A DNA stretch of 23,508 nucleotides from a virus, in IMG/VR virus record IMGVR_UViG_2857776322_000004, positions 74,353 through 97,860 of that record, one strand, 5' to 3'. Within the stretch, counting starts at the first letter, position 1; every line of letters starts with the position of its first letter. The notes under the pieces are model-generated. The model saw nothing but the letters and a program-made list of their open reading frames with translations. It was not told where the DNA came from and ran no database searches. Below are positions 1-23,137 of the stretch, piece by piece. Both the position numbers and the translations under genes were made by a program.

Positions 1-2
1 AG

Positions 3-1983: not shown

Positions 1984-2024
1984 CCCCACATACCCGCCGT
2001 GCGCGAGCGCGGCGCCGTCCCAAC

Positions 2025-2068
2025 GCCCGCCCAGGTGGCGGGCTTTCGCATGTCCGCCCCAGGAGGGC
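2025..2068 (+). promoter_or_regulatory. Two tandem hairpins with CAGG(T/A) loops in the scaffold leader; the second contains the RBS
   Basis: GCCCGCC-CAGGT-GGCGGGC (2025-2043, then TTT) and GCCC-CAGGA-GGGC (2056-2068). Confidence 0.45.
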
Positions 2069-2075
2069 CAACCGC

Positions 2076-2735: not shown

Positions 2736-2748
2736 AAGCAGGACCCCG

Positions 2749-3708: not shown

Positions 3709-4718
3709 CCACGACGGCGGCGAGGCCGCTGCGCATCGTCGCCCGCATGGGCCAGTACCCGCCCGCGCACAACGCCGGCGGCGAGATCGCGACCCACGCC
3801 ATGCTGCGCGCCCTGGTGGCACGCGGCCACGACGTCTCGGTGTGGCTCGCCCGCTACGGCTCCGCCGCACGGCCCTACGAGGTCGACGGTGTGCGCGTCG
3901 TCCCCTTCGAGACCCAGGCCGACTTCGACACCGCGCTGCGCCGGTCACACGCGGTGCTCGGCCAGTACGAACTGGTCCCGGCGACACGGGCGTTGGCGAA
4001 CGGCTACGGCAAGCCCCTGATCGTGCCGGTGCACACCTCGCGCCCTCCGACACTGCGGAATCTGGTGGCCGGCACCACGGCGCTTGCCGTGCACAACTCC
4101 CAGTGGGTCAGCCGGGAGGCTGAAGCGCTCCTTGCGGAGCAGCCCGACGCGACGCGCCCGAACGCGTCGATCGTGGTGCGGCCCCCGGTGGTCGCCGCGG
4201 AGTACGCGACGACACCGGGGGACCGGGTCACCCTGGTCAACCCGTGCCACGAGAAGGGCGGCACGGTGGTGCGGGAACTCGCCCGACGGATGCCCGACAC
4301 CGCGTTCATGGTGGTGGCCGGCGCCTACGGCGAACAGGTCGACTACACGGGCCTGAACAACGTGAGCGTCGTCGGCCACACCGCCGGCGCCGCCGCCATG
4401 CGGGACCGGGTCTATGCCCGCTCCCGCATCGTGCTCATGCCCTCCACCTACGAGTCGTGGGGCAGAGTCGCCGTCGAGGCCATGGCGTCCGGCATCCCCG
4501 TGATCGCCTCGCCCACACCCGGCCTGCGCGAATGCCTCGGCGACGCCGGGACGTTCGCCGACCCGCGCGACATCGACGCGTGGGAGACGGCGCTGCGCCG
4601 ACTGGAGAAGCCCGCCGCCTGGAAGGCGGCGTCGAGCCGGGCGCTCGCCCGGTCGGCGGAACTCGATCCCACCGACGACCTCGAGGCGTTCGTGAGCGCC
4701 GTCGAGGCTCTGCACTGA
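3705..4718 (+). CDS. Glycosyltransferase family 4 (GT-B fold), 337 aa
   Basis: N-terminal YPP..AGGE..H..LRAL...GHDVSV, a KG motif, and the EX7E motif (PSTYESWGRVAVEAMASGIPVIAS). GTG overlaps the capsid stop codon (GTGA). Confidence 0.88.
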   Translation: MTTTAARPLRIVARMGQYPPAHNAGGEIATHAMLRALVARGHDVSVWLARYGSAARPYEVDGVRVVPFETQADFDTALRRSHAVLGQYELVPATRALANGYGKPLIVPVHTSRPPTLRNLVAGTTALAVHNSQWVSREAEALLAEQPDATRPNASIVVRPPVVAAEYATTPGDRVTLVNPCHEKGGTVVRELARRMPDTAFMVVAGAYGEQVDYTGLNNVSVVGHTAGAAAMRDRVYARSRIVLMPSTYESWGRVAVEAMASGIPVIASPTPGLRECLGDAGTFADPRDIDAWETALRRLEKPAAWKAASSRALARSAELDPTDDLEAFVSAVEALH

Positions 4719-4731
4719 GGGAGGTGCGGTC

Positions 4732-5142
4732 GTGGCGTTCGTGCCCCCCTCCGCCGAGGACCTGGGGCTGTACCTGTCCCTCGGCGAGATCGACGGCGCC
4801 CGCGCCGACCTGATGATCCATCAGGCCGTGCTGCTGTGCGAGTCCGTCGTCACACCCCTGCCCGACGCTGCCTCCGTCGTCGTGCTGTCCGCCGCGGGCC
4901 GCGCCTACGCGAACCCCCAGGGCGTCAGCTACGAGACGATCGGCCCGATCAGCGTGCAACGGCCCCAGGCGGGCTTGTACTTGACCAAGGCCGAACGCAC
5001 CGCGCTGAAGGCGATGGCCGGGCGCGGCGGCGCGTTCACGATCGACCCCACCCCTGCGGACGCGACCCCCGTCCCGACCTATCCGATCGACGACGACGGC
5101 TGGTGGGGCCTCGAGTGGGAACCGGGCTGGGGGTGGATCTGA
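4732..5142 (+). CDS. Head-to-tail adaptor
   Basis: RAYANPQGVSYETIGP...GLYLTKAER motif of actinophage adaptors; GGAGG RBS; synteny. Confidence 0.8.
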   Translation: MAFVPPSAEDLGLYLSLGEIDGARADLMIHQAVLLCESVVTPLPDAASVVVLSAAGRAYANPQGVSYETIGPISVQRPQAGLYLTKAERTALKAMAGRGGAFTIDPTPADATPVPTYPIDDDGWWGLEWEPGWGWI

Positions 5143-5143
5143 C

Positions 5144-5506
5144 GTGGTCTTCCCCGTCCCGTTCGGGGTCACCCTGATCCGACTCCGGTCCGGACCGTCG
5201 CCGGGCCGGGATCCCTACGGCAAACCGATTCCCGGGCCGGTCGTCGAAACCCCCCTGCCCGGCTGTGTGGTCACGCCACGTCAGGCTGCTCCGGCCCCCG
5301 GAGGGTCCGAGCAACAGGCACGCGACACCGTCATCAAGGGCCTGACCGTGTACGCGCCCCCGGGAACGGACGTGCGCACCACCGACCGGTTCCGCCACCG
5401 CGGCCTCGTCTACGAGGTCACCGGCGAGCCGGGGGAGTGGGGGCCGTCGGCGTTCACCGGCACCGCCGGTTGCACGCAGTTCCTCCTCGACCGCATCACC
5501 GGCTGA
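5144..5506 (+). CDS. Head-to-tail stopper / head closure protein
   Basis: DPYG, TVYAPPGTDV..TDRF...G..YEV.GEP..W motifs; synteny. Confidence 0.8.
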   Translation: MVFPVPFGVTLIRLRSGPSPGRDPYGKPIPGPVVETPLPGCVVTPRQAAPAPGGSEQQARDTVIKGLTVYAPPGTDVRTTDRFRHRGLVYEVTGEPGEWGPSAFTGTAGCTQFLLDRITG

Positions 5507-5521
5507 CGAGGGGAGACCGAC

Positions 5522-5860
5522 ATGCCCACCCGGTTCAAGCTCGACAACAAGGGCGTCGGGGAACTCCTGCGCTCGCAGATGCTGCTGCGCGAGATGATCC
5601 GCCGGGCCCAGGCGATCAAGAGCACCGCCGAGGCGCTGGCCCCGGTGAGCCCACGCCCCGACGACTACCACTCGGGCCTGTACAAGACGTCGTTCAAGGT
5701 CATCGTCACCGACCGCGGCGCCCGTCGACACGACCGCGCCCAGGCCACCGTCCACAACTCCGCGTGGTATGCGGCCTGGGTCGAGTACGGCGCCGAGGGC
5801 GGACGCGGCGGCGGACACCACGTCCTGCTGCGCGCGGCAGAGGCAGCAGGCGGCGGCTGA
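5522..5860 (+). CDS. Neck protein (HK97 gp10-like)
   Basis: APV...SG.YK.SF and YAAWVEYG...HHVLLRA motifs; GGGGAG RBS; synteny. Confidence 0.75.
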   Translation: MPTRFKLDNKGVGELLRSQMLLREMIRRAQAIKSTAEALAPVSPRPDDYHSGLYKTSFKVIVTDRGARRHDRAQATVHNSAWYAAWVEYGAEGGRGGGHHVLLRAAEAAGGG

Positions 5861-6252
5861 TGGACGCCTTCGTCGACATCGAGGTCCTGCTCATCGCGTG
5901 GTTGTCGGCCGGCAGGCCCGGTACGACCTGGGCGGCCGAACTCGACAACGACCTCCTGTCCTACCTGCCGTGCGGCCAAGTGGTTCGCGTCGGCGGCGAC
6001 GACGACGGAACCCGGCTGGACCGGGCCCTCGTCGACGTCGACATCTACGCGGCCGGCCGGGCGCAGGCCGCCGACATCGCCGCGTGGACCCGCACCGCCC
6101 TCACCAGGAACCTGCCCGGGAGTTCGCTCCCCGGCGCGGTCGTCGGGCGCGTCTCCACGGTGTCCGCGCCCGCGTGGCGCCCCTACGAGAACACCGCGCT
6201 GCGCCGCATGGGCGCCACCTACGAGGTGTTCCTTCACCCGGCCGTGACCTGA
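5860..6252 (+). CDS. Tail terminator / tail completion protein, 130 aa
   Basis: TGATG coupling to the upstream gene; MDAFVDIE..., VVRVGG.DD, VDVDIYA motifs; position before the major tail gene. Confidence 0.75.
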   Translation: MDAFVDIEVLLIAWLSAGRPGTTWAAELDNDLLSYLPCGQVVRVGGDDDGTRLDRALVDVDIYAAGRAQAADIAAWTRTALTRNLPGSSLPGAVVGRVSTVSAPAWRPYENTALRRMGATYEVFLHPAVT

Positions 6253-6316
6253 CCGGCCCACTTTCCTTTCCGGCCCCGCCGCGCGTGGGGCCTTCGCACG
6301 TCTGGAGACACCCCCG

Positions 6317-6904
6317 ATGTCCCTTGTGATTCCCCGCGATGCCGATGTGACGATGGCAGGTGTGAACGGCGGAGGCTGGGTCGGCCCCCTGGGTACGGCC
6401 AAGCCCGCCAGTCCGCTTGCAACCCCTCCGCCGACCTGGGCCGCCCTGGGCCGCCTCACCGAGGACGGCCTGGTCCGCGGCTGGGACGAGGACTCCACCG
6501 AGTTCCGTTCCTGGGGTCAGACCGCGCCGTTCCGCACGATCATCACCAAGTCCAACAGGACCTTCAAGGTCGCGTGCCAGGAGATCAACCGGCCTGCGGT
6601 GATGAGCCTGTGGAACCGCATCCCCGAGGGCTCGCTGACGCCCGACGTCGACGGATTCGTCAACTTCGCCGAGACCGCGACGCCGGTTCCCGACCGGCGC
6701 GCCTGGTGGTTCATCGTCCTGGACGGCACGACGTTCCGCGGGTTCTACGTCCCCCAGGGCGAGATCAGCAACCGCGAGGACGAGACGTACAAGAACGACG
6801 AGTTGGCGACCTACAACATGACGATCACCGCGTACCCGGACGACGCCGGGAACACCGTCTACCACACCTACAAGGTCGCCACGGTGGACAGCCCCAGCAG
6901 CTGA
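6317..6904 (+). CDS. Major tail (tube) protein
   Basis: W..LG.LTEDG, EFRSWG, YNMTITAYPD motifs of actinophage tail tubes; GGAGA RBS. Confidence 0.88.
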   Translation: MSLVIPRDADVTMAGVNGGGWVGPLGTAKPASPLATPPPTWAALGRLTEDGLVRGWDEDSTEFRSWGQTAPFRTIITKSNRTFKVACQEINRPAVMSLWNRIPEGSLTPDVDGFVNFAETATPVPDRRAWWFIVLDGTTFRGFYVPQGEISNREDETYKNDELATYNMTITAYPDDAGNTVYHTYKVATVDSPSS

Positions 6905-6920
6905 CCCGCCATCACCGACC

Positions 6921-6958
6921 GGTGGGCGGGCGGCACTTCGCGGGACCGCCCGCCCACC
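6921..6958 (+). terminator. GC-rich stem-loop after the major tail gene (terminator or mRNA stabiliser)
   Basis: GGTGGGCGGGCGG-N12-CCGCCCGCCCACC, a 13-bp perfect stem. Confidence 0.65.
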
Positions 6959-7010
6959 ACCTCTCTACATCCCGCGACCCGCGACCCGCGAACCATCAGG
7001 AGTGAAACCC

Positions 7011-7463
7011 ATGAACGACGCCCCCACGCAGCCCTACGTCGACCTCGACCGGCCCCAGGCCGCCACGGCTGCGGAACCGCGGCAGGACATCGCGCGCGAA
7101 CCCGTCGTCGCCCGGGAGGCGAGCCCCGAATTCCGGGCGCAGGAGATCGAGGCCCTTGCCCCGGACGGATACGTGCGCGCGGACCTGGCCGGCGAGATCG
7201 ACGGCGAGACCGTCGTCGCCGAGGTCATGGCACTCATGCCCGGCAAATGGCGGGCATCGGTCATGCGCCTCCTGCGTGCGGGCGACTTCGACGGCTTCAT
7301 GTCCGCCGTCCTCACCGCGGACGGCTACGACGCCTATCTCGAACTCGACCCGAACCAGGACCAGTTCGCGGCCTTCGTCGAGGACCTGTCCACGAAGGGC
7401 GGCGAATCGGTGGGAAAGTCGAGTGGACGACGGGGATCTGCGACGCGTATGCGGAGGAGGTAG
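7011..7463 (+). CDS. Tail assembly chaperone (gpG-like)
   Basis: AGGAG 8 nt upstream of ATG 7011; lies between the major tail and tape measure genes; slippery site near its 3' end. Confidence 0.82.
   Translation: MNDAPTQPYVDLDRPQAATAAEPRQDIAREPVVAREASPEFRAQEIEALAPDGYVRADLAGEIDGETVVAEVMALMPGKWRASVMRLLRAGDFDGFMSAVLTADGYDAYLELDPNQDQFAAFVEDLSTKGGESVGKSSGRRGSATRMRRR
7412..7418 (+). promoter_or_regulatory. Programmed -1 frameshift slippery site G GGA AAG
   Basis: In-frame X XXY YYZ heptamer identical to the lambda G/T site; the -1 frame is open to 7870. Confidence 0.85.
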
Positions 7464-7870
7464 AAGCGGACCTCCGTTCCTACAGCGGCGTGAACTTTCT
7501 CGACGTCCATCGCGGACTCCTGACCTGGCGTCAGGTCCGGGTGATGATCGAGAAACTGCCGCCGGAGTCGGCGACGTGGACGGCGATCCGCAACGACGCC
7601 CCCGAACCCGCCGCCGACGATCCCCCCGGCCGGCCGCCCGAGGAGGGCCGCTGGTCCCAGGTGGAAATGCTCCTGGCCGCCGTATTGGAGGCCATCCGCG
7701 ATCTCCACCACCACGAGATCTGCGTGAACTGGGACACCTCCAAGGCCCCCCGCCCCGCGCCGCCCGACCGCATCCGGCGACCCGGATGGCGGCCTCCGAC
7801 AACGCAACTCGACCCGTCGCCCGCATGGGCGCGGGCACTGTTCGACGCCATCGTCGACGGCCCTACGTGA
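7412..7870 (+). CDS. Tail assembly chaperone -1 frame extension (gpT-like part of the gpGT fusion 7011..7870)
   Basis: Reads ...EVEADLRSYSGV..LD.HRGLLTWRQVRVMIEKLPPESAT..., typical of actinophage gpT; no independent RBS is evident. Confidence 0.82.
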   Translation, partial: GKVEWTTGICDAYAEEVEADLRSYSGVNFLDVHRGLLTWRQVRVMIEKLPPESATWTAIRNDAPEPAADDPPGRPPEEGRWSQVEMLLAAVLEAIRDLHHHEICVNWDTSKAPRPAPPDRIRRPGWRPPTTQLDPSPAWARALFDAIVDGPT

Positions 7871-7906
7871 CCCACGTCTGACACCAGCACGAGGAGGTGA
7901 CTCCTC

Positions 7907-10900
7907 GTGCCGATCACCGTGGGCACCGTCGAGGTGCACGTCATCCCCAACACCCAGGGGATCCTGACCCGGCTGCGCAACGGCATCCTGCCCGCCGCGA
8001 ACACCGTCGGCACCGAAGCCGGTCAGCAGATGGGCAACCGCCTCACCCAGGCACTCCAGGTCCAGGTCGTCGGGGCGGGCATCCGCATCGGGCGCCAGCT
8101 CGGCGAGGAGATCTCGCGGGAACTGCGCCGCGCGGTGCGCGACGCGCTCCCGGACACGATCCGCACGAGCGGCAAGTTGGCGGCCGCGCAGGGCGGGCGC
8201 GCTGGCGCCGAGACCGGCGGCGCATTCTCACGCGAGCTGAAGACCCGCGTCGAGGCCGCGGTTCGATCCCTACCCAACATCAAGGTCGGCGCCAACACCT
8301 CCGAGGCCGAGTCCGACCTCCAGGCGCTGCGGGTGCGGATGGAGTCTTTGCGCGACAAGCGCATCGGCATCGACATCGGCGCCGACGAGGCGCGCATCGA
8401 GGCGGAAGCCCTCGAGGCCGAACTGCGCCGCCTGGGCGCGATCAGCCCGAACGTCCGCGTCCGGGTCGACACCGCCCGTGCGATCGCCGAACTGGAGGCG
8501 ATGCGCGAGCAGATCAGGCTCGCGACCCTCAAGCCCTGGGAAGTCCGCCTCGAGGTGGACGGCGGGTTCGGCGCCCGGCTGCGCGCCGCAGTCCAGGCCG
8601 CGCAGGCGAGCCTGCCGAACATCAACATCGACTCCAACACGTCCCCGGCGCGTGCCCGGATCCAGGGCCTGCGCGCCGAGCTGGAGCAACTGCGCGACGT
8701 CCGCGTCGGCATCGACATCGACGCCGCCGCGGCGCAGGCGAAGATCGACCAGATTCGGGCCGAGCTGGCCAAGCTCGGGATGAACAAGGACGTCGACCTC
8801 GACGTCCGCGTCGACGCCATGAACGCGCGGCGCGAACTGAAGGCCGTCGAGCTCCAGGCCGACATCCTGGACCGCAAGCGGATCGACATTCCGATCCACA
8901 CCAGTTCGGCGATGAGCAACATCCTGCAACTCGCCGCCGCGCTGGGCGCCGTGATTGTGCCACCCGCGATCGGTGTCCTGGCCGCCGGCCTGGGCGCCGT
9001 CACCTCGGCCGCGTTCGCCGCTGCGGCGGGCATCGGCGCGGTCGCGCTCGTCGCCGTGCCCGGGATCATGAAGATCGCCGGCGCGTTGCAGGCACAGAAG
9101 GCCGCCAACGAAGCGGCAGCCACAGCCTCCGGGAAGTCCGGCGCGGCTGCCGCTCAGCAGGCGATCCAGGCCCAGCAGCAGGCCCTTCAGATGGAGGGCG
9201 CGCAGCAGACTCTCACCCAGGCGTACCGGCAGGCCGCCCAGCAGCGCGAACAGTCGCTGCGGCAGGTCTCGGCCGCGCAGCGTGCCGTCGGCGATGCCCA
9301 GGTGCAGGCGGCGGAGCGCGCGAGGCAGGCGGAACAGCAGCTCGTCGACGCCCAGGCCGACGCGCGGCGGGCGCAGATCGCGCTGACCGACGCCCGCAAG
9401 GCGGCGCGCCTGGAGTTGGAGGACATGCGGTCCCGGCTTGCCGGGGCGGCCCTCGACGAGCGCAGCGCGGTGCTGGCGGTCGAGCGCGCCCAGCAGCGGC
9501 TGGCTTCGACGCGCGAGGCCGGTGCGTCGGTGTCGCGGTTGGACCGCGAGGAAGCGCAACTCGCCTACGACGAGGCCGTACAGCGCCTGGAGGACCAGCG
9601 GCGCGAGAACGGCCGCCTCCAGGAGAGCGCGGCGGCTGCCGCGAAGGCGGGGGTGGAGGGCTCCGACCAGGTCGTCAAGGCCAAGGAGGCCGTGACGCAG
9701 GCCGATCGGCGCGCCGTCGAGGCCGCCGCCGGTGTCCGCACGGCGCAGACCGAGGGTGCGCGTGCCGTCGCGGACGCGCAGCAGCAACTCGCCGACGCGC
9801 AGCGCAACGCGGCACAGGCGGCTCAGCAGTCCGCGGACCAGGTCGCCTCCGCGCAGCGCGGTATCCAGTCGGCCCAACTCGCGGCGGCAGCCGCGGCCGA
9901 GCAGTCGGCCGGCGGCATGGATGCGGCGGCGACCGCCGCGCAGAAGTACCAGGACGCGCTCGCGAAGATGAACCCCGCGACGCGCTCCACCTACGACGCG
10001 GTCCTGCGGCTCAAGGACGCGTTCAAGGCGTGGTCCGATGCGGCTTCACCTGCGGTGATGCCGCTTTTCACGCGGTTCGTCGACGGTCTCACCAGGACTC
10101 TGCCGACGCTGACGCCGATGGTCATGGCAGCGGCCGACGGCATCGGGCGGCTGATGGACCGGGCCTCGCGCTCCTTCGCGCGCGACCCGTTCTGGGCCTC
10201 CTTCAAGGCCGACCTGACGATTGCGATGCCGCGTGCGATCGAGGGGATGGGGGTCTCTTTCGGCAATCTCTTCCGGGGGATCGCCGGGATCTTCGATGCC
10301 TTCAACCCTCACATGGACTCGATCGCCGCCCGCATGGAGAAGGCGACGGGCCGGTTCGCGAACTGGGGTACACAGCTCAAGGGTTCCCCCGAGTTCGAAC
10401 GGTTCCTGGACAACGCCTCACGCAACGCCCCCCTGTTGAAAGAGGCGTTCGCCGCGATGGGGCGGGCGATCCTCGAGGTGAGCAACGCGCTGGAACCTCT
10501 GCGCGGGCCGGCACTGGTGATCCTCACCGCCGTCGCGCAGTTCATCGCGCTGCTGGCCGAGCGGCTGCCCGGCGTCATCCAGTTCCTGGTTCTGTACGCG
10601 ATCGCGTGGCGCGCGATCAACACGGCGATGGCCATCAACGCGGCGGTGTCGAAGATGACGCCGATGGGCCAGCTCATCATGATCATCGCCGCCGTGATCG
10701 CGGTGATCGTGCTGTTGGTCCTGCACTGGGACAAGGTCACCGCCGTGTTCCGGTGGGTCTGGGAGCACGTGCTGCGGCCGGTGTTCCTCGCGATCGCCGA
10801 CGCGGCCGGAGTCATGTGGCGCAACGGCATCAAGCCGGTCGTCGACGGCCTGGTGGCCGGCTGGAACGCGGTCGCCGAGGCCGCGAACTGGCTGTGGCGC

Positions 10901-13159
10901 AAAGTGCTTTCGCCCGTGTTCGACGGCATCGGCGTCGGTGCGCGCATCCTCGCGGCGATCGTCCTCGTGATCCTGATCGCGCCGCTGCTGATCGCCTTCC
11001 GCCTTCTCGCGGCCATCGGGCTGTGGCTGTGGCACGACATATTCGAGCCCGTCTGGACCGGCATGTCCATGGCTGCGGACTGGGCCTGGCGGAACATCCT
11101 CAAGCCGACACTGGAGGGCATCGGCGCCGGGCTCGGCTGGGTCGGCGACCGCCTGGGCGACCTGTGGCACGGCGTGTTCGAGCCGGCCTGGTCGGGCATG
11201 TCCGGGGCGGCCGACTGGGCTTGGCGGAACATCCTCAAGCCGACGTTGGACGCCATCGGCGCCGGATGCGGCTGGGTCGGCGACCGCCTGGGCGACCTGT
11301 GGCACGGCGTGTTCGAGCCCGTCTGGTCGGGCATCTCGAGCGCGGTGTCGTTGGCGTGGAGCATGTTCCTGAAGCCGAGCTTCGACTCGATCACCGGCGG
11401 GATGCAGGCGGTCGGCTCCTGGGCCCAGGACCTCTACCAGGTCTGGATCAAGCCCTGGTTCGACAAGATCGGCGCGGTCATCGGCGACACGATGACCAAC
11501 GCCCAGAAAGCGTTCAGGGTTGCGATCGACGGGATCACCCTTCTCTGGGGATTCCTGAAGGAAATCGTCGCCGCGCCCGTGCGGTTCGTCGTCAACCAGG
11601 TCTACGACAAGGGCATCAAAAAGGTATGGAACTGGGTGGCCGACAAGGTCGGTTTGCCCTCCCTGCCGGACGGCGTGGCCGGATTCGCAAGCGGCGGTAT
11701 CTACCCGGGATATACGCCCGGGCGTGACATCGGGCTTGCCGCCGTTTCCGGTGGCGAGGCCATCATGCGTCCGGAATGGACGCGCGCCGTCGGCCCCGGA
11801 TTTGTCAACTCCATGAATGCCGCCGCCCGCAGCGGCGGTGTGGCCGGGGTGCGTTCCGCACTGTCCACGACGCCGATCGTGGGCGCGTATTCGTGGGGCG
11901 GAATCGTCGGCAGTGTCGTCGACACCGTCAAGTCGGGAATCGACGCGATTCCCGGCGCGTCCTGGGTCCTGGACAAGGGTGCCAGTCTCGCCCGGGGTTT
12001 CCTCGCGGGTTCCGTCGAGCTGGCGATGAAGCCTGTGCGGGCCATGATCGGGGAGATCCGAGGCGAGAGTCCCTGGTCGAAGGTCGCGCGCGGCCTGCCG
12101 AACAAGGCGATCGACGGTGTCATCGACTGGATCCGCGAGGACGACCGCAAGCAGGCGCTTTCCGGCGTCGGCGTCGCGGCGTCCGCGCTGCGCGAGGCCA
12201 TGACCTATGCGGGCGTGCCGTACCTGTGGGGCGGCACCTCGAGGTTGGGCATCGACTGTTCCGGCCTGACGCAGGCCGCCTACAAGGCGGTCGGTGTGGA
12301 GATCGGCCGCACGACCTACGACCAGGTCAAACGCGGCCGGCACATCGCGATGCGGGACGCCGTGCCCGGCGACTTGGTCTTCGAGCAGTTCGAAGGTCCC
12401 TCTCCGAGCCACGTCGGCATGTACCTGCGCCCCGGCGTCATCTGGAACGCGCCGCGCCCGGGACTGGGCGTCGGGGAGTCCGGAATCGCGAACGTCGTCG
12501 ACGTGCGCCGTATGGCGTCCGACGTCATGGGCGGCTCCGTGAGCGCCTTCGGCGACGTCGCCGGCTGGCTGCGGGCCGCGCTCGCGGCGACCGGGAAGCC
12601 GGCCGAATGGCTCGCACCGTTGATGACGATCGCGAAATTCGAATCGGGTGGAAATCCGCGTGCGGAAAACCACTGGGACTCGAACCAGCGATACGGCGGG
12701 ACGTTCGGGTTGATGCAGACCATTCCGCCGACTTTCAATGCATACAAGTTGCCCGGCATGGACGACATCCTGAACCCGATCCACAATGCAATTGCGGCGA
12801 TTCGCTACATTGCAGCCCGCTACGGAACTCCCTTCAATACTCCGGGAATTCGGTCGCTGTCGGCGGGCGGCGGTTATCTGGGATACAAGGCCGGCGGCAT
12901 CGTCCCGTTGGCGTTCGACAGCGGCGGCTATCTGCCTCCGGGGTTGAACCTGACGTACAACGGGCTCGGGCGGCCCGAGCCGGTTTTCACCCCGGCGCAG
13001 TCCGCAGCACTGTTCTCCGGGGTGCGCGGCGGCGACGGCGGGGGAGTGTTCACCGGCGAACTCCGCCTCTCGGGCGGGGAATTGCTGGGCGTCGTCGACG
13101 GCCGGATCGATCGCAAACAGGACGAACTCGCGGGTCGGCTCGGCATGGGCAGGGGGTGA
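7907..13159 (+). CDS. Tape measure protein, 1750 aa, with C-terminal NlpC/P60 peptidase and SLT-type lytic transglycosylase domains
   Basis: GAGGAGG RBS; long Ala/Gln coiled coil; Trp-periodic amphipathic repeats; GVPYLWGG..GIDCSG..HVGMY (~12190-12510); ESGGNP..GLMQ..NAIAAIRYI (~12570-12885). Confidence 0.93.
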   Translation: MPITVGTVEVHVIPNTQGILTRLRNGILPAANTVGTEAGQQMGNRLTQALQVQVVGAGIRIGRQLGEEISRELRRAVRDALPDTIRTSGKLAAAQGGRAGAETGGAFSRELKTRVEAAVRSLPNIKVGANTSEAESDLQALRVRMESLRDKRIGIDIGADEARIEAEALEAELRRLGAISPNVRVRVDTARAIAELEAMREQIRLATLKPWEVRLEVDGGFGARLRAAVQAAQASLPNINIDSNTSPARARIQGLRAELEQLRDVRVGIDIDAAAAQAKIDQIRAELAKLGMNKDVDLDVRVDAMNARRELKAVELQADILDRKRIDIPIHTSSAMSNILQLAAALGAVIVPPAIGVLAAGLGAVTSAAFAAAAGIGAVALVAVPGIMKIAGALQAQKAANEAAATASGKSGAAAAQQAIQAQQQALQMEGAQQTLTQAYRQAAQQREQSLRQVSAAQRAVGDAQVQAAERARQAEQQLVDAQADARRAQIALTDARKAARLELEDMRSRLAGAALDERSAVLAVERAQQRLASTREAGASVSRLDREEAQLAYDEAVQRLEDQRRENGRLQESAAAAAKAGVEGSDQVVKAKEAVTQADRRAVEAAAGVRTAQTEGARAVADAQQQLADAQRNAAQAAQQSADQVASAQRGIQSAQLAAAAAAEQSAGGMDAAATAAQKYQDALAKMNPATRSTYDAVLRLKDAFKAWSDAASPAVMPLFTRFVDGLTRTLPTLTPMVMAAADGIGRLMDRASRSFARDPFWASFKADLTIAMPRAIEGMGVSFGNLFRGIAGIFDAFNPHMDSIAARMEKATGRFANWGTQLKGSPEFERFLDNASRNAPLLKEAFAAMGRAILEVSNALEPLRGPALVILTAVAQFIALLAERLPGVIQFLVLYAIAWRAINTAMAINAAVSKMTPMGQLIMIIAAVIAVIVLLVLHWDKVTAVFRWVWEHVLRPVFLAIADAAGVMWRNGIKPVVDGLVAGWNAVAEAANWLWRKVLSPVFDGIGVGARILAAIVLVILIAPLLIAFRLLAAIGLWLWHDIFEPVWTGMSMAADWAWRNILKPTLEGIGAGLGWVGDRLGDLWHGVFEPAWSGMSGAADWAWRNILKPTLDAIGAGCGWVGDRLGDLWHGVFEPVWSGISSAVSLAWSMFLKPSFDSITGGMQAVGSWAQDLYQVWIKPWFDKIGAVIGDTMTNAQKAFRVAIDGITLLWGFLKEIVAAPVRFVVNQVYDKGIKKVWNWVADKVGLPSLPDGVAGFASGGIYPGYTPGRDIGLAAVSGGEAIMRPEWTRAVGPGFVNSMNAAARSGGVAGVRSALSTTPIVGAYSWGGIVGSVVDTVKSGIDAIPGASWVLDKGASLARGFLAGSVELAMKPVRAMIGEIRGESPWSKVARGLPNKAIDGVIDWIREDDRKQALSGVGVAASALREAMTYAGVPYLWGGTSRLGIDCSGLTQAAYKAVGVEIGRTTYDQVKRGRHIAMRDAVPGDLVFEQFEGPSPSHVGMYLRPGVIWNAPRPGLGVGESGIANVVDVRRMASDVMGGSVSAFGDVAGWLRAALAATGKPAEWLAPLMTIAKFESGGNPRAENHWDSNQRYGGTFGLMQTIPPTFNAYKLPGMDDILNPIHNAIAAIRYIAARYGTPFNTPGIRSLSAGGGYLGYKAGGIVPLAFDSGGYLPPGLNLTYNGLGRPEPVFTPAQSAALFSGVRGGDGGGVFTGELRLSGGELLGVVDGRIDRKQDELAGRLGMGRG
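11027..11335 (+). repeat. 135-bp (45-aa) tandem direct repeat, ~2.3 copies, within the tape measure gene
   Basis: TTCGAGCC recurs at 11042, 11177 and 11312; the peptide FEP.W.GMS.AADWAWRNILKPTL..IGAG.GWVGDRLGDLWHGV is repeated. Confidence 0.9.
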
Positions 13160-13162
13160 CCG

Positions 13163-15388
13163 GTGGCGATCAGCACGAACCTCCTCGACGCGAACACGTC
13201 CGGGTTCGAAACCAACATCGGGACCTGGACGGCCGGGAGCAACACCACGGCGGCCCGGGTCACCGGTGTCTGGTACACCGGCGCCGCGTGCATGCGGTTG
13301 ACGGCGACCGCGAACGGGTCGGTGGTCGCGACCACCGGGGCGGTGCCGATCACCGCCCTGTCCGAGTACCTGGCGTTCGCGTTCACCGCGAACACCGCGG
13401 CGGTCGCGGGCCGCACGGTGTCGCTGACCCTGACCTGGCTGAACGCATCCAACGCCACCGTCGGGACCTCGGTCGGCACCACCCCGACGGCCATGCCCGC
13501 GTCCACCGCGTGGGTCACACCCCCGACGTTCGTGGACGCCGTCGCCCCGGCGACCGCGACCCAGGTCAAACTCACCGTCACCGTGACGGGCATGCTCGCC
13601 GGCGGGCAGATCCTCGTCGACGAGGTCGGCCTCGGCCCGCCGCTCCTCCAGAGCGGCAACCTGCTGTTCTACAACGACCAGTCCATCGAGATGGACGCGA
13701 GCGGCTGGACGGCGTCCGTCAACTGCACGGCGGCGCGTTCGTCCGCCCAGTTCGTCGAGGGCTGGTACTCGCTCGCGGTCACCGCGACCGCGTCCGGCGA
13801 CGTCCAGGTCCGCTCGGTGGCGACACCGGCCGTCGCCGCCGGCACCGAGTACTTCGGGTACTTCTGGATCCGCACGCCGATTGCGCTCACGGTCCAGGCG
13901 GACCTGTGGTGGTACGACGCGTCGAACGCGCAGGTCGGGACGACCAGCACCACCACGGTCACCGCGGTGACGACCTGGCAGCGCCTGGGCGTGGCCGCGA
14001 AACCCCCGGCGACCGCGACCAAGGTCCGGCTCGTCGTCCGGCCGCAGGCCACCGCCGCCGCGCAGGTCGTGTACGTCGACCAGATGACGATCCGCACCGC
14101 GCCGTTCAGCGTGGCCGGCAACCTCCTCGCGTTCGGCGTCGAGTCGATGGAGTGCGATCTCACCGGCTGGGCCGCGGGGGCGAACGCGAGCATCGCCCGC
14201 ACCACCGCGCAGGCGTCCGCCGGCTTCTGGTCCATGGAGGTCACGACCCCCGCCGCCGGCCAGGGTCGCGCCCAGACAACCGCGCTCGTGCCGGTCGTCG
14301 CCGGCACCTACTACCTGGCCAAGCAGAGCTATCGGTCTGCGACCGCCGGCGCGATGTGGACCGACATCGACTGGTACGCCTCGGACGGCGTCACCTGGCT
14401 GGGCAACGCCGGCCCCGACCGGGACCTCGGCCTCACGCCCGGCTCTTGGTGGTCGAACACCATCGGCCGCAAGGCCCCGCCCGGCGCGGCGTGGGCCCGG
14501 GTGGTGTCCCTACCGCAGTCCACGCTCGCCGGTCAGGTGTGGTGGGTCGACGCGGTCGGCCTCAGCGTCGGCACTCCGCCCTACGAACTCACCGCCCACC
14601 CGGAAACGGGCTCCGCGACCCTGGTCATCAACAACGCCACCTCGTCCGGCGCCACCTCCATCACCGTGCACCGCGTCGACCCGGACGGCACCCGCTCGCC
14701 CGTCCGCGGCTACGGCGGCGACCTCGAGAACGTGGCCGTCCCGGGCGCGGTCATGGTCGTCACCGACTACGAGGTCCCCCTCGGCGCCGAGATCCACTAC
14801 GAGTACATCCGGCACGCCCCCGGGCCGCCCGCCGTCGACTACAGCACCGGCACCACCGGCATCGTCGTGGCTCCGCCGGCCGACCCGGCGTATGTATGGC
14901 TGTCCGACCCGGGCCAACCCGCCCGATCCATCCGGCTCATGATCGAGAAGCCGCCGGACTGGACGTTCGGCATCGAACGGGCCGTGTATCGGGTGCGGGG
15001 CCGTGCCGACCCGATCGTGCGCTCCGACGTGCGCCGGACCCCGGAAGGCGACCTGGCCGCCTACACCTGGACCACCAGCGACGACACCCAACTGCGGTTC
15101 ACGCTGGAGACCGGCCACGTCCTGCTCCTGCGGGCGCGGCCCGGCTGGGGCCTCGACTACCAGTACGTGTCCGTGGGATCCGTGCAGTCGCCCCGCGTGG
15201 TGCAGATGGGTTCCGAGGCCGGCCGGCGCTGGACCCTGCCGCTCACCGTCGTCGCCCGCCCGACCGGCGGCATGGTCGGGTCCGCGTCCCGTACCTGGCA
15301 GACCGTCAAGGACGACGCGACCGCGACCACCTGGGCTGCGGTCCTCGCGAAGTACTCGACGTGGCTCGACGTCCTCCAGGGGGTGTGA
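13163..15388 (+). CDS. Minor tail protein (distal-tail-like) with three N-terminal carbohydrate-binding-module-like repeats
   Basis: First gene after the tape measure; three ~155-aa repeats starting NLL...E....W at 13178, 13658 and 14120; C-terminal WLSDP...GR.DP region. Confidence 0.72.
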   Translation: MAISTNLLDANTSGFETNIGTWTAGSNTTAARVTGVWYTGAACMRLTATANGSVVATTGAVPITALSEYLAFAFTANTAAVAGRTVSLTLTWLNASNATVGTSVGTTPTAMPASTAWVTPPTFVDAVAPATATQVKLTVTVTGMLAGGQILVDEVGLGPPLLQSGNLLFYNDQSIEMDASGWTASVNCTAARSSAQFVEGWYSLAVTATASGDVQVRSVATPAVAAGTEYFGYFWIRTPIALTVQADLWWYDASNAQVGTTSTTTVTAVTTWQRLGVAAKPPATATKVRLVVRPQATAAAQVVYVDQMTIRTAPFSVAGNLLAFGVESMECDLTGWAAGANASIARTTAQASAGFWSMEVTTPAAGQGRAQTTALVPVVAGTYYLAKQSYRSATAGAMWTDIDWYASDGVTWLGNAGPDRDLGLTPGSWWSNTIGRKAPPGAAWARVVSLPQSTLAGQVWWVDAVGLSVGTPPYELTAHPETGSATLVINNATSSGATSITVHRVDPDGTRSPVRGYGGDLENVAVPGAVMVVTDYEVPLGAEIHYEYIRHAPGPPAVDYSTGTTGIVVAPPADPAYVWLSDPGQPARSIRLMIEKPPDWTFGIERAVYRVRGRADPIVRSDVRRTPEGDLAAYTWTTSDDTQLRFTLETGHVLLLRARPGWGLDYQYVSVGSVQSPRVVQMGSEAGRRWTLPLTVVARPTGGMVGSASRTWQTVKDDATATTWAAVLAKYSTWLDVLQGV

Positions 15389-15389
15389 A

Positions 15390-16499
15390 GTGCTCACCGT
15401 CACCCCACGGTTCCTGCCCGCGCTCACCCTGAGCCACAACCAGGCCGGGAGGGTCGACGTCCTCCAGGGCGTCACCCTCCTGCTGTCCGGCGTCCCCTAC
15501 GAGGACGGCACCGTCACCGCGGACGCCGGATCCGACGTCCGCTATTCGATGACGCTCACCGTCTCCGACCCGTCCCTCCTCCCGTTCGACCCCGCGGACT
15601 TTCTCGCCCCCTACGGCCAGGCACTGCACCCCTACCAGGGCCTGACCTACACCGACGGCACCACCGAGGTCGTGCCCTGCGGCGTCCACGTGATCACCCA
15701 GGTGTCCGGGGACCGCGACACGGGCCCGGTCACCGTCACCGCCAAGGGACGCGAAGTCGTCGTCCAGGCGGCCAGGTTCACCGCCTCGTGGGACACGCGC
15801 GGGTTCGGCTCCCACGTCGACGCGATCTCCGCCGCCGTGATCACGGTCATGCCGGCCGTCGTCGTCGACGACCGCACCACCCACGACCGCACCCCCGCCT
15901 ACCGGGTCTGGAAGGCGGGCGACGACCGATGGTCCGCCTGCCGTGAACTCGCCAAGGCCATCGGCGCGAGTTGCTACTTCGACGCGGTCGGCACACTCGT
16001 GGTCGCCGACCTGCCGCCCGCCCCCGACGGCGCGACCCCCGTGTGGGACGTCGCCGCGGGCCCCGGCGGCGTCCAGGTGTCCGCCGGCTGGGGACTGTCC
16101 TCCGACGGCCTCTACAACGGCGTCCGCGCGTCCGGCCAGAACTCCACCGACAACGTCGCCCCCGTCACCGACCTCGTCGTCGACACCGACCCCACCAGCC
16201 CGACCCGCTGGGGCGGACCCCTCGGTCAGCGCCTGCTCACCTACGAATCGCCGCTCCTGATCACGACCGGGGACTGCACCGTCGCCGCCGAAGGTCTCCT
16301 GCGCACCGGCATCGGCCTCAAGACCACCGTCGACCTGCAATCGGTCCCCAACCCCGCCCTGGAACCGGGGGACTGCGTGCGCACGATCTACACCGACGGC
16401 ACCCGCACCCTCCACATCGTGCGCTCCCTCACCATCCCCCTCGGCGACGGACCCTGCTCCATCAAGACCATGTCGGCGGCCGACGACCCGGAGCCCTGA
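15390..16499 (+). CDS. Minor tail protein (baseplate hub / Tal-like), 369 aa
   Basis: GTG 15390 just after the upstream stop; DRWSAC.ELA, YNGV, SPTRWGGPLG, PNPALEPGD motifs seen in Streptomyces phage hub proteins. Confidence 0.75.
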   Translation: MLTVTPRFLPALTLSHNQAGRVDVLQGVTLLLSGVPYEDGTVTADAGSDVRYSMTLTVSDPSLLPFDPADFLAPYGQALHPYQGLTYTDGTTEVVPCGVHVITQVSGDRDTGPVTVTAKGREVVVQAARFTASWDTRGFGSHVDAISAAVITVMPAVVVDDRTTHDRTPAYRVWKAGDDRWSACRELAKAIGASCYFDAVGTLVVADLPPAPDGATPVWDVAAGPGGVQVSAGWGLSSDGLYNGVRASGQNSTDNVAPVTDLVVDTDPTSPTRWGGPLGQRLLTYESPLLITTGDCTVAAEGLLRTGIGLKTTVDLQSVPNPALEPGDCVRTIYTDGTRTLHIVRSLTIPLGDGPCSIKTMSAADDPEP

Positions 16500-16750
16500 T
16501 GGACCTCGCCGACATCATCCACGACGTCGTGCGCCGCCTGCTGGACGAATCCTCCGCCGACTGGCGCATGGGCACCGTCACCGCCCTCACCCCCGACTCC
16601 ACCGCCGGAACCCTCCTCGTCGACGTCGGCGGCGGCACCGTCGTCAAAGCCCGCCGCGCCGCCACCTACACCAGCCCCGTCGTGGGCGACCGCGTGTGGG
16701 CGGACCGCAACCGGGCCGGCGAATGGCGCGTGACCGGCAAGCTCGCCTGA
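16499..16750 (+). CDS. Small tail-tip protein, 83 aa (possible OB-fold)
   Basis: TGATG coupling; GTVT...YTSPVVGDRVW...W.V.GKL pattern; synteny. Confidence 0.6.
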   Translation: MDLADIIHDVVRRLLDESSADWRMGTVTALTPDSTAGTLLVDVGGGTVVKARRAATYTSPVVGDRVWADRNRAGEWRVTGKLA

Positions 16751-16805
16751 ACCCACGAACCCCCCTGCAACGCCCGGCAATCACGAGTCCGGGTGGAGGT
16801 GACGC

Positions 16806-17387
16806 ATGCCCGCTACCGACAAATACGGCCAGGAGATCCCCTACTCGCTCCTCACCGACTCACCCGACGCCCAAGCCCTCGGCAAGGGCATCGCCGACGC
16901 CGCCGCCGGACGCTCCGTCATGCGGTTCGCATCCGCGGCCAACCGCGGCGCCACCCTCATCGGCGACTCCGCCGCCCAGGAGGGCATGGTCACCTACGTC
17001 AAGGACGCGGACCGCATCGACTACTACGACGGCGCGAACTGGCAGCCCCTGACGCCCGGCCCCTGGATCCCGTTCCCCGTGGCGTCCGGCATCTCCTACA
17101 ACTCCGGCAGCCCCGCCTACCGGCTGGTCAACGGCGTCGTGGAAATGCGCGGCACCCTGCGCCGCACCGACGGCGAAGGCTTCGACGCCGAGAGCGTCAT
17201 CCACCTGGGAACCCTGCCCGGCGGCTACTGGCCCGGCTACTACCGCTACTACATCGTCGCCACCGAGTGGGCCGCGCAGATCCACGCCCGCCTGGAGATC
17301 GACCCCACCAACGGCTGGATCAACGCCCTCATCCTCGAGGGCTCCCCGCACTGGATCGCCGTGGACGGCGTGTCCTCCAGCCTCTGA
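16806..17387 (+). CDS. Minor tail / tail fibre-associated protein, 193 aa
   Basis: GGAGG RBS; MRFASAA.R...EGMVTY...YDGANW N-terminal motif and YR..NG.V..RG...LP.GY.P C-terminal motif. Confidence 0.65.
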   Translation: MPATDKYGQEIPYSLLTDSPDAQALGKGIADAAAGRSVMRFASAANRGATLIGDSAAQEGMVTYVKDADRIDYYDGANWQPLTPGPWIPFPVASGISYNSGSPAYRLVNGVVEMRGTLRRTDGEGFDAESVIHLGTLPGGYWPGYYRYYIVATEWAAQIHARLEIDPTNGWINALILEGSPHWIAVDGVSSSL

Positions 17388-17453
17388 CCCCTCGCCACAC
17401 CCCGGGCCGCAACAGCCCGAGGACCCCCCCTTTTCCCGCGCCCGGAGAACCCC

Positions 17454-17687
17454 ATGCCCCACTACCACGCCGCGATCGTCCACCCCGGCGACGAGACCAC
17501 CTACTGCGGAATCGTCCCCGGCGAGCACGTCGAAGCGGTACTCGCCGCCTGCGAAACCCACCCCGAACGCGAACCCAAAACCGGCCGCGACGGCGGGATC
17601 TACGTGCTCCGCGCCGACGGCGACCTCGACCACTACCTCCCCGTCGACGCCCCCGCGCGCCCGACCGAAACAGCGGTGACCCCATGA
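17454..17687 (+). CDS. Hypothetical protein, 77 aa
   Basis: GGAGA RBS; GC3-rich codons; its stop overlaps the endolysin ATG (ATGA). Confidence 0.65.
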   Translation: MPHYHAAIVHPGDETTYCGIVPGEHVEAVLAACETHPEREPKTGRDGGIYVLRADGDLDHYLPVDAPARPTETAVTP

Positions 17688-18844
17688 CCGGACCGTCCTA
17701 CATCCCCGGCGCCGAACGCCTCGGCCCCGACACCGGCGGCTCCATGGACACCCCGAACCTGCCGCCGCGCGCCGTCTGGCACACCGTCGAATCCCCCTCC
17801 GGCAGCGGCTGGTTCACCTCGATGGCGTCCTACCTCAAGCGCGAATCCGTCTGGCCGCAGGTCCTCTACGACCCCGCCTCCGACCGCCTCGGCCAATTCG
17901 CCGCCCTCGACACCAGCGGCCGAGCCCTGCGCAACGACGGCACCTCACGCACCAACCGCACCGGCCGCGTCTGCATCCAGGTCGAGGTGTGCGGACGCGC
18001 CTCCGAACCGTGGACCGACGGCTTCGACCCGGCCGGCAAACCCAACTTCCTGAAGCTGATCGGCGCGATGCGCGCCTGGGGCATCCCCGACACCTGGCCC
18101 GCCGGCGCCCCCCAGCGCTACCCGGGAGACCACGACGACCGCGACCGCGCCACCTGGCTGGGCCGCGGCGGCCACTACGGGCACAGCCAAATCCCCGGCA
18201 ACGACCACGGCGACCCCGGCGCGATCGACACCTCGAAGGTCCCACCGAACGGCACCACCACCCCCGGCGGCGGATCCCCCGGCGGCGTCTCCCGAGCCCA
18301 GGACTCCATCAACGGACTCCTCTACGGCTACGGCGCGCACGGCGACCACGTCACCGCGGTGGGCCGAGCCCTGGTCGCGGCCGGCTTCGGCAGCCACTAC
18401 ACCACCGGACCCGGACCGGACTGGACCGATGCCGACACCCTCAACTACGCCGACTACCAACGCTCGTTGGGATACCGCGGATCCGACGCCGACGGCGTCC
18501 CCGGCGAGGAATCCCTCATCCGCCTCCTCGGAGCCCTGCCCTCCCGCAACGACACGCCGACCGTGTCCCTGTCCAACCTGATCGCCGCCGCCCGCGCCGA
18601 CGTCCCCGCCGCAACCGGCCACCTCACCCACCCCGACGACGTCCTGACCGTGGAGAACGCCCTCGTCGCCGAGGGCCTGCTGGCCTCCTCCTACGCGGAC
18701 GGCTCCTACGGCACCCGGACCGTCTCCGCCTACGCCGCCTGGCAACGCCGCCTCGGCTACTCGGGATCGGACGCCGACGGCTACCCCGGACGAACCTCGC
18801 TGAGCAGGCTCGGCGACGCACACGGATTCAAGGTGACCCCATGA
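17684..18844 (+). CDS. Endolysin: Zn amidase (Amidase_2-like) plus two peptidoglycan-binding domains, 386 aa
   Basis: AVWHTVES, IQVEVCG, HYGHSQIPGNDHGDPG amidase motifs; two YA.(Y/W)QR.LGY.GSDADG.PG..SL.RL repeats. Confidence 0.88.
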   Translation: MTGPSYIPGAERLGPDTGGSMDTPNLPPRAVWHTVESPSGSGWFTSMASYLKRESVWPQVLYDPASDRLGQFAALDTSGRALRNDGTSRTNRTGRVCIQVEVCGRASEPWTDGFDPAGKPNFLKLIGAMRAWGIPDTWPAGAPQRYPGDHDDRDRATWLGRGGHYGHSQIPGNDHGDPGAIDTSKVPPNGTTTPGGGSPGGVSRAQDSINGLLYGYGAHGDHVTAVGRALVAAGFGSHYTTGPGPDWTDADTLNYADYQRSLGYRGSDADGVPGEESLIRLLGALPSRNDTPTVSLSNLIAAARADVPAATGHLTHPDDVLTVENALVAEGLLASSYADGSYGTRTVSAYAAWQRRLGYSGSDADGYPGRTSLSRLGDAHGFKVTP

Positions 18845-19311
18845 CCACGACCATCCCCGGCAAGTACCTCGCCACCCTGGCCGAACGCACCGCAGCGTCC
18901 TTCGTCGAGGCATTCGCGTCCGCGTGGATGGTCGCGGACGCCTACAACCTGAGCACGGCCGAGACCGCCGCCCTGGCCGGCGTCATGGCCGCGCTGACCG
19001 TCCTGCGCGCGGCCCTCACCTCGTTCCTTGGCCACCGCGCCGCCGACCCCACCATCCGCACCGGATACGCCTACGCCGTCGACGTGTTCGAGCGCGTGGC
19101 CGCAACGTTCGCCGAAGCCGGCATCGCCGCACTCCTCCTGGCCGGCACCCTCGACCTCTCGCATGCCCGAGCGGCCGGCTTCGCGGGCCTGACCGCCGCG
19201 CTCTCCGTACTCAAGGCACTCCTCGCCCGCTTCGTGGGCTCCACAGCGACCGCATCGCTGCTCCCCGCCGCCAAGGACCCGGGCACACCGCCCGGGTCGC
19301 GACCGGCCTGA
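18841..19311 (+). CDS. Holin, r1t-like, internally duplicated, 156 aa
   Basis: ATGA coupling to the endolysin; two ER.AA(S/T)F.EA...AAL(T/S)VL(R/K)A.L hydrophobic units. Confidence 0.75.
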   Translation: MTTTIPGKYLATLAERTAASFVEAFASAWMVADAYNLSTAETAALAGVMAALTVLRAALTSFLGHRAADPTIRTGYAYAVDVFERVAATFAEAGIAALLLAGTLDLSHARAAGFAGLTAALSVLKALLARFVGSTATASLLPAAKDPGTPPGSRPA

Positions 19312-19327
19312 GCGGGCGGGTGCTGCC

Positions 19328-19675
19328 ATGCCCGATGAGCTGACCGTCGGAGAGTTGGGCCGATCGATCGACGCCCTCCGCGGCGAACTCCGCGACGGCA
19401 TGGCGGCCCTGAACGCCCGCCTGGACCGCATGGTGACCACCGAGGTGTACGCGGCGCAGAGCGCCCATACCGAATGGCGGATGGCCGAACTCGCCCGCGA
19501 ACTCGAAAAGTTGCGCAACGAGGCGGCGCGCCTCGAGGACGACTTCGAGGCGTACCAGCGGGCCGAGCAGGAACGCCGGGAACGCGACCGGCAGACCCGC
19601 CTGTACTCGGCGATCATCCCGATCCTCCTGGGGGTGCTGGCGGTGGCGGCGACGATATGGGCGGCGATCCGATGA
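19328..19675 (+). CDS. Lysis-cassette membrane protein (coiled coil plus C-terminal TM helix), 115 aa
   Basis: Charged heptad region followed by the hydrophobic stretch [23 protein letters not shown]. Confidence 0.7.
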
Positions 19676-22710: not shown

Positions 22711-22725
22711 GGGCTTCCCGCCGAT

Positions 22726-22741
22726 TCACCCGAACGGGTGA
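22726..22741. promoter_or_regulatory. 16-bp palindrome matching the Streptomyces BldM-box consensus
   Basis: TCACCCGAACGGGTGA compared with the recalled consensus TCACcCgnncGgGTGA. Confidence 0.55.
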
Positions 22742-22820
22742 GTTCGGCGATCCACTGCACACCCGTCGGGACGACCCGATACGGTCTACATACCGGCACC
22801 GCTTCGGCGGGATCGGTAAC

Positions 22821-22995
22821 CTGCTCCCCGCATCTGCGGGGATGGCCCTGATTACAGGGGCGCCAGGCACTGCTCCCCATGCATATGGGGATGGCCCGGA
22901 TTCGATGGGCAAGCTGCATTGCTCCCCGAGCACTCGGGGATGACCCTGATTGCAGGGGTGCCCGACCTTGTTCCCCGCGCATGCGGGGATGCGAA
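22821..22995 (+). CRISPR. Orphan type I-E-like CRISPR mini-array: 4 repeats, 3 short (20-nt) homologous spacers, 49-nt period
   Basis: Repeats start at 22821 CTGCTCCCCGCATCTGCGGGGATGGCCCT, 22870 CTGCTCCCCATGCATATGGGGATGGCCCG, 22919 TTGCTCCCCGAGCACTCGGGGATGACCCT and 22968 TTGTTCCCCGCGCATGCGGGGATG (3'-degenerate). They resemble the I-E repeat GTGTTCCCCGCGCCAGCGGGGATAAACCG. No cas genes are in the window. Confidence 0.88.
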
Positions 22996-23003
22996 GCCCC
23001 ACC

Positions 23004-23025
23004 GCCTCACGGTGGTGAGGCTTTT
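23004..23025 (+). terminator. Intrinsic terminator closing the mini-array transcript
   Basis: GCCTCAC-GGTG-GTGAGGC-TTTT immediately after repeat 4. Confidence 0.7.
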
Positions 23026-23028
23026 GTG

Positions 23029-23056
23029 CTGTCCACACCCGGCCCGGTTGTCCACA
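23029..23056 (+). promoter_or_regulatory. Two direct DnaA-box-like 9-mers
   Basis: CTGTCCACA (23029-23037) and TTGTCCACA (23048-23056; the actinomycete consensus). Confidence 0.4.
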
Positions 23057-23137
23057 GGCCGGCCGCCGCCCACCCGCCCGGGTCCCGCCTCCCGCCACGC
23101 TCTCCCCACGGGCCGCCCGGCCCACGGAGGAGGCGTC

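Follow-up and report, generated by a model that had tools for sequence, protein, structure and literature searches.

A prophage mini-array of three short crRNA-like units that resemble regulatory guides of streptomycete CRISPR-Cas loci of type I-E

A mini-array behind the structural and lysis genes of a prophage

The stretch of viral DNA analysed here (referred to as the window, 23,508 nucleotides) carries siphovirus genes for head, tail and lysis, after which come small ORFs without assigned function and then a mini-array of type I-E-like repeats (Table 1). The array thus lies on a mobile element and outside any CRISPR-cas locus, as do the Cracr arrays discussed below, and its units have the Cas6 stem and the 8-nt handle that belong to the host subtype, a further Cracr feature. 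The window repeats are only 19-21/29 identical to each other; all four stems are nonetheless intact, and across 19 units the repeat stem is 98% paired. Rfam has no match within the window. A consensus scan of 22300-23508 returned 0 sigma-70-like promoters, and, by eye, the leaders of L091, L092, L115 and L138 resemble that of the window.

Table 1. Coordinates of the features of the window
Feature	Position	Strand	Remarks
Prophage head, tail and lysis genes (portal, protease, capsid, connectors, major tail, tape measure, endolysin, holin)	1..19675	+	PHROGs
Candidate -10 hexamer TACGGT of a putative array promoter	22780..22785	+	chosen by eye
Predicted leader hairpin before repeat 1	22792..22817	+	-14.6 kcal/mol
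Four-repeat type I-E-like mini-array	22821..22991	+	49-nt period, three 20-nt spacers, then predicted terminator
Repeat 1, type I-E-like, Cas6e-type stem and 8-nt handle	22821..22849	+	resembles canonical repeat in relatives' arrays
Predicted handle-spacer hairpin, unit 1	22845..22861	+	units 2 and 3 at +49 and +98
Spacer S1, 20 nt	22850..22869	+	agrees at nt 1-11 and 13-15 with an AAC-flanked site of host locus L031
Repeat 2	22870..22898	+	
Spacer S2, 20 nt	22899..22918	+	9/10 seed positions match targets in L080, L088, L089
Repeat 3	22919..22947	+	
Spacer S3, 20 nt	22948..22967	+	17/20 to L031 host regulatory spacer; 9/10 seed positions to L031 target
Repeat 4, intact stem, terminator in place of handle	22968..22991	+	
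Predicted intrinsic terminator	22993..23028	+	2 overlapping sites, shuffles mean 0.5; -20.9 kcal/mol

The small ORFs at 21496-22627 read leftward (-), away from the array, and are candidate acr or aca genes; none has a Pfam, PADLOC or named PHROG match, one gives a weak match to phrog_34233, which is also found near the mobile-element array L085, and for the ORF at 22298-22627 no viral relative was found. Just 3' of the terminator, at 23138-23335, is an ORF of 65 aa that has a ribosome-binding site and codes for a hydrophobic segment at its N-terminal end.

The genome to which the prophage belongs (98.6% complete) contains no cas7e and no further I-E repeat. It has a single cas3g-like gene (L245:6477-9428, G000:C3), with no recognised cas neighbours or array in the region checked, and no seed-perfect PAM-flanked site for the window spacers. 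We note that cas7e is present in 31/61 genomes of our search of relatives, so that the likely host range of the phage takes in I-E carriers. We also note that a related 32-kb contig retains the locus, and that its repeat-spacer-repeat unit is equally long.

The three spacers resemble one another. An earlier note on this DNA had reported pairwise identities of 15 (S1/S3), 12 (S1/S2) and 10 (S2/S3) of 20 and a shared motif, GATTnnA(G/T)GGG(C/T); recomputation gives the same identities, and all three spacers fit the motif, with the likeness concentrated in nt 1-12. Nine columns (1-4, 7, 9-11 and 19) are common to all three spacers, which has a P of about 2.5e-5 when compared with triples drawn from 1364 canonical spacers. 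Eight of the nine fall within nt 1-11, and conservation is concentrated in the seed and lost toward the 3' end. The likeness is far greater than chance would give. The note took the spacers for duplicated paralogues. S2 is 14/20 identical to the L089 host guide and S3 17/20 to that of L031 (see below). Since for every window spacer there is a host guide no more distant from it than the other spacers of the array are, the apparent paralogues may, besides duplications, be alleles that were captured separately or that converged.

Host guides, their targets and the phage spacers

We have found units of the same kind in the CRISPR-cas loci of possible hosts. Among all 40 cas7e loci of the relatives search (620 kb), locus L031, from a genome of the same genus (G005), has a unit with a 20-nt spacer at the end of a CRISPR array. 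This spacer is identical to S1 at 15/20 positions, 11 of them contiguous, and to S3 at 17/20, and it matches over 15 nt an AAC-flanked target that lies 216 bp from the guide. A pattern scan of GTDB with one genome per species returned 19 loci, namely 13 ordinary array spacers, one non-CRISPR locus, L073, L080, L088, L089 and L085; in a family sample the unit pattern occurred in 2/401 genomes. L073 is the same unit as L031 and is counted once, L080, L088 and L089 are Streptomyces host units, and L085 is an array on a mobile element. In L080, L088 and L089 an AAC-flanked target is situated 354-365 bp upstream of the guide, with cas3 or cas8e on one side of it and, on the other, a divergent ORF for a hydrophobic protein of 72 aa. 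A search with the 72-aa protein gave three more strong hits (L238, L243 and L244), each accompanied by a guide and a target, as well as four weak hits (L239-L242). L238, L243 and L244 were thus found via the protein rather than the spacer, and they carry new seed alleles that are altered in both guide and target.

In all seven host loci the guide matches a local AAC-flanked target at 9-10/10 seed positions, the next best site reaching 6-7, and five seed alleles vary jointly in guide and target; the seven are not independent, L080, L088 and L089 being close homologues. Counted over the seven loci, the guide is identical to its own target at positions 1-19 in 7, 7, 7, 7, 7, 3, 7, 7, 7, 6, 7, 1, 6, 5, 3, 2, 1, 0 and 3 cases. 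Identity therefore falls at positions 6, 12 and 18 (3, 1 and 0 of 7), which is the signature of Cascade, free sixth positions being its known pattern (10.1101/2023.03.03.530964). The host guides are 20-21 nt long except that of L243, which is 33 nt. The PAM at all of the targets here is AAC, whereas the available part of PMC11560957 gives AAG as the PAM used in Streptomyces. A further regularity, the identity of handle nt 8 with the final base of the PAM, holds for the hosts and was dropped, there being no target evidence for the phage units.

The 72-aa protein belongs to a family of hydrophobic ORFs of 69-76 aa, encoded between cas3 or cas8e and the host guide (L080:3686-3901), with six homologues, in L080, L088, L089, L238, L243 and L244. 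The guide's target is at or near the start of this gene in six of the seven host loci. The protein, in which one or two segments are hydrophobic, falls into no Pfam or PADLOC family and is absent from plasmid gene tables; judged from its sequence and position, it is a candidate CreTA-type membrane toxin that would guard CRISPR. The spacer G-run is matched by the target in 6/7 host loci, and in five loci the target's AGGGG run, at a distance of 16-24 nt from where the small ORF starts, is likely to be the ribosome-binding site of this downstream gene; the L244 target lies further upstream. In L080, L088 and L089 the target site also contains TTGAAT, which could be the -35 box of a promoter directed toward cas3 or cas8e. 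The site is not always a cas -35 box, the hexamer being confined to these three loci and absent in L238 and L243. The targets are thus PAM-flanked sites in CRISPR-cas loci, and their reading as promoter or 5'-region sites is suggested by sequence features and is least clear at L031. There, no cas gene is downstream of the S1 site, and a 40-aa ORF (L031:14583-14705) with one hydrophobic segment and a ribosome-binding site is found about 65 bp beyond the S1 target on the opposite strand; it has no family and no homology to the 72-aa protein. We also observe that L031:3920-8695 encodes Cas3 and Cas8e (Cse1) in one 1591-aa frame.

The window spacers match these same host targets. S1 matches the L031 target at 10/10 seed positions, and S2 and S3 match host targets at 9/10, the mismatch of S3 with the L031 target being at seed position 5; an exact cognate target for S2 or S3 was not found among the loci and genomes searched. 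A hit for all three spacers at ≤1 mismatch in 652 kb has a shuffle P of 0.053. Matches of 9/10 are weak alone and count mainly because they fall on the host guides' own sites. Twelve further units on mobile elements share the motif, and 10/12 of these match a host target at 9-10/10 positions. The whole set of 94 viral short units had no excess of matches in the cas loci searched (3 versus a shuffled mean of 2.0, and 37 versus 38-52). Two other sets of matches were taken as chance, one of S3 to antisense cas5e codons in L044 and L049, with CAC or CAG flanks, and one of five other AAN-flanked hits in 11 genomes of the genus (among them an 11-nt match to S2), with no CRISPR repeat nearby. The earlier note had offered, as an alternative to its own preference, that the three spacers are aimed at variants of one conserved site in a cas locus, and the host guide-target pairs support this alternative.

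A predicted hairpin between handle and spacer

The earlier note had favoured a second hairpin, in which nt 4-8 of the handle pair with nt 8-12 of the spacer around a 7-nt loop, as the mark of a structured decoy. The complementarity is present in all three window units (5/5 pairs each), and the handle-spacer energies of S1, S2 and S3 (-9.6, -7.8 and -6.5 kcal/mol) place them among the strongest 0.7, 3.6 and 8.9% of canonical units. The proposed register is predicted for S2 (probability 1.00) but not for S1 (0.05) or S3 (0.10), which are predicted to prefer a shifted register with a 4-nt loop; when the whole 49-nt S3 unit is folded, its handle and spacer are predicted to pair with repeat 4 instead. 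As to the covariation that was claimed, the window units contain one change from one Watson-Crick pair to another, G-C to A-U, and no others. Handle swaps among the three units reveal no unit-specific fit: the S1 handle on S3 gives -8.0 kcal/mol, better than S3's own handle, and the canonical host handle pairs nearly as well with S1 and S3. Part of the hairpin arises because a CCC handle meets a G-run that is dictated by the target.

We consider it possible, at somewhat worse than even odds, that the hairpin is a selected feature of the guide family, a proposal compatible with the Cracr reading set out below; a selected hairpin would tune Cascade loading or shield the 5' end left by the cut, and would do so in host guides as well as in those of phages. 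In 22 units (7 host, 12 other mobile-element and 3 window units) 103/110 cells are paired, and RNAalifold predicts the helix unprompted. Spacer nt 12 matches the target in only 1/7 host loci, yet is a pyrimidine in 22/22 units versus 44/85 other short units. L085 has both sides changed in three pairs, L244 retains G10 against its own target, and in 6/7 host loci the spacer pairs better with the handle than the target sequence would. Moreover, a GCCC handle is found in 0/1364 canonical units. Against this, the units are kin and were selected by a motif that itself contains GG, and two of the five pairs are fixed by the CC of the handle and the GG of the target. Permutation of handles among the 22 units gives a p of 0.007, which becomes 0.12 without L085 and 0.30 without L085 and S3, and for the window and host units alone the result is 10/500 shuffles. 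L200, which fits the family motif, was left out of this set (best seed 6/10, 2/5 pairs); with it included, the permutation p is 0.004, or 0.10 without L085. GCCC handles also occur in 16/85 other short units, some of them without pairing, and in L220, even though the spacer there follows cas7e codons, handle and spacer match perfectly over 5 bp. When the handle is blocked, the predicted downstream repeat stem is on average no lower (0.69 versus 0.68), and the idea that the hairpin shields the stem of the next repeat was set aside for want of an average effect (19/21 units scored). The impression, gained by eye, that phage short-spacer arrays generally show handle-spacer pairing was not upheld in the 94 viral short units (40 families), which were collected with handle and spacer free, 8/102 short units having been dropped as their handle did not fit RTGNNYCN; here there was a weak trend at most, p being 0.32 against long spacers and 0.29 against canonical ones, with a permutation p of 0.059 and a shuffle p of 0.06. 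The hairpin is thus conserved in the guide family and may be selected, on modest evidence.

It is a different matter whether the hairpin marks the units as structured decoys, which, in the manner of Racrs, would absorb Cas6e and Cas7 without guiding anything to DNA. The hairpin energies, in the top 1-9% of canonical units, would suit such decoys, RacrIF1 acts via a product without a usable handle according to the part of PMC10651486 available, and the accessible text of 10.1101/2024.10.29.618823 has Cracrs also competing for Cas proteins, so that some decoy effect is expected in any case. The same hairpin is, however, predicted in 7/7 host homologues that have PAM-flanked cognate targets, with 4-5/5 pairs; selected or not, it occurs in guides with targets of their own and so does not identify a decoy. 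Moreover, the seed of the phage units is conserved and the 3' end is not, and a pure decoy would have no reason to track host seed alleles. We therefore regard a pure decoy as unlikely.

Possible function and relation to known anti-CRISPR guides

We suggest, with a probability of roughly 0.8 and from sequence comparisons, that this prophage array specifies three crRNA-like RNAs that match host I-E regulatory guides and likely act as anti-CRISPR guides of the Cracr type. The array would be transcribed from its own promoter through to the terminator, and host Cas6e would cut the transcript into 49-nt units. Each 20-nt spacer (32 minus 12) could then load a Cascade with four Cas7 subunits and, by pairing over 11-15 nt beside an AAC PAM, bind without locking and without cutting. 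The bound complex would repress the site that the host's own guide controls, that is, the start of the small membrane-protein gene and/or a cas promoter, and the phage units would also compete with host crRNAs. According to structural work, Cas5 holds the handle unpaired in Cascade. The handle-spacer hairpin would be possible in the free RNA only and would have to open on Cascade loading; the available text of PMC9458426 states the role of Cas5. For shortened guides, the portions available of PMC5159557 and PMC6859484 report, respectively, that -12 crRNAs assemble a four-Cas7 Cascade and that shortened complexes form R-loops and do not lock. The former also describes some interference by -12 complexes on fully matching targets, which counts against the non-cutting part of our proposal.

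In the parts of the Cracr preprint available to us (bioRxiv 10.1101/2024.10.29.618823), I-E Cracr arrays with 21-24-nt spacers silence casA, and 20 I-E arrays are counted, with Actinomycetota among the hosts. As far as those parts go, the window array is like the Cracrs in being prophage-borne and cas-less, in having degenerate I-E repeats and short spacers that resemble a host regulatory guide, in having a PAM-flanked partial target in a CRISPR-cas locus, and in having two or three spacers aimed at variants. Under the strict filter of at least 9 PAM-proximal nt matching a host CreA or CreR spacer, only S1 passes, S3 having a mismatch to the L031 guide at nt 5. The window differs in belonging to a streptomycete system, in the AAC PAM, in a common target that is the start of a small membrane-protein gene, and in the handle-spacer hairpin, which goes unmentioned in the portion of the preprint text available. 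On the host side, L089, L243 and L244 share the layout of CreR/CreA, for which the accessible parts of 10.1101/2023.03.10.532045 and 10.1101/2023.03.03.530964 describe a mini-array between cas3 and casA and a partial PAM-flanked match near a promoter; the I-E CreTA of Citrobacter rodentium has, in the text available of PMC12055562, a small toxic ORF in the cas3-casA gap; here the 72-aa protein, with no Pfam or PADLOC match, is a candidate toxin. CreR, CreA and CreTA are encoded by hosts, whereas the window units are carried by a prophage, and the genome that contains it lacks Cascade. Racrs, as the available part of PMC10651486 describes them, are likewise repeat mimics on mobile elements that compete for Cas6 and Cas7, but they are solitary repeats without target pairing; the window array comprises four repeats, its handles are intact, and its spacers show extended seed matches to host guides or targets. 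What is available of 10.1101/2024.12.27.630466 and PMC11560957 adds little to the comparison.

The Cracr class is already known, and the candidate membrane toxin and the possible function of the hairpin are the additions made here. In a literature search that covered mainly open-access papers and the text of preprints, we found neither the streptomycete module described nor any account, for guides of this kind, of a hairpin between handle and spacer, and the family may already be listed in the supplementary tables of the Cracr preprint. It is nevertheless useful that a vague 'decoy' becomes a testable guide-target system, with seven pairs of guide and target in hosts, fifteen mimics on mobile elements and a possible membrane toxin. 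Endogenous I-E systems of streptomycetes are in use for genome engineering, and if the hairpin is functional it would provide a design rule for short type I guides that we have not found in print. A more ambitious proposal, which we offer as speculative and would expect to fail in at least some of its parts, is that a small membrane toxin of streptomycete I-E loci is repressed by a guide, that allele-matched actinophage mimics keep both the toxin and the cas promoter shut, and that the handle fold is a selected switch for Cascade competition.

Two explanations remain that would give the array no such regulatory role. A host regulatory unit might have been acquired by the phage and duplicated by slippage, leaving a non-functional remnant; the present host has no I-E Cascade and the repeats have diverged from one another, as a remnant would lead one to expect, but the four stems and the terminator are intact, the spacer is exactly 20 nt three times over, and the locus persists, its unit no shorter or longer, in the related 32-kb contig, and we judge a remnant marginally less probable even than a pure decoy. 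That this is an ordinary viral mini-array for cutting competing phages or plasmids is very improbable, since, despite the 32-33-nt spacers that other viral arrays in our set also contain, the window array holds no full-length 32-nt unique spacers with full protospacers, all three of its spacers are 20 nt long and mutually related, their best matches are in CRISPR-cas loci and end at nt 11-15, and in a blastn comparison of the array region with 50,697 phage records the repeat alone was matched (12 records) and no spacer was.

Lastly, three observations were made on other phage arrays. In L220 (IMGVR_UViG_3300028532_000002, unit at ~601-665) a 20-nt viral spacer matches the cas7e codons for NLNRDDT, and the match stands behind an AAC or AAT PAM in 20/40 host loci, with 13-15/15 positions identical, as though this phage guide were aimed inside a cas gene. 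Among 84 viral loci with short-period I-E-like units (L143-L226), several other spacer families, for example one starting with GATGC, recur across phages, and 32-nt spacers frequently stand among them. Cultured phages, too, have a degenerate I-E mini-array that is unannotated; it occupies an intergenic gap and would be within easy reach as a test system (L236:1880-2175, Streptomyces phage Vondra; 12 related-phage records).
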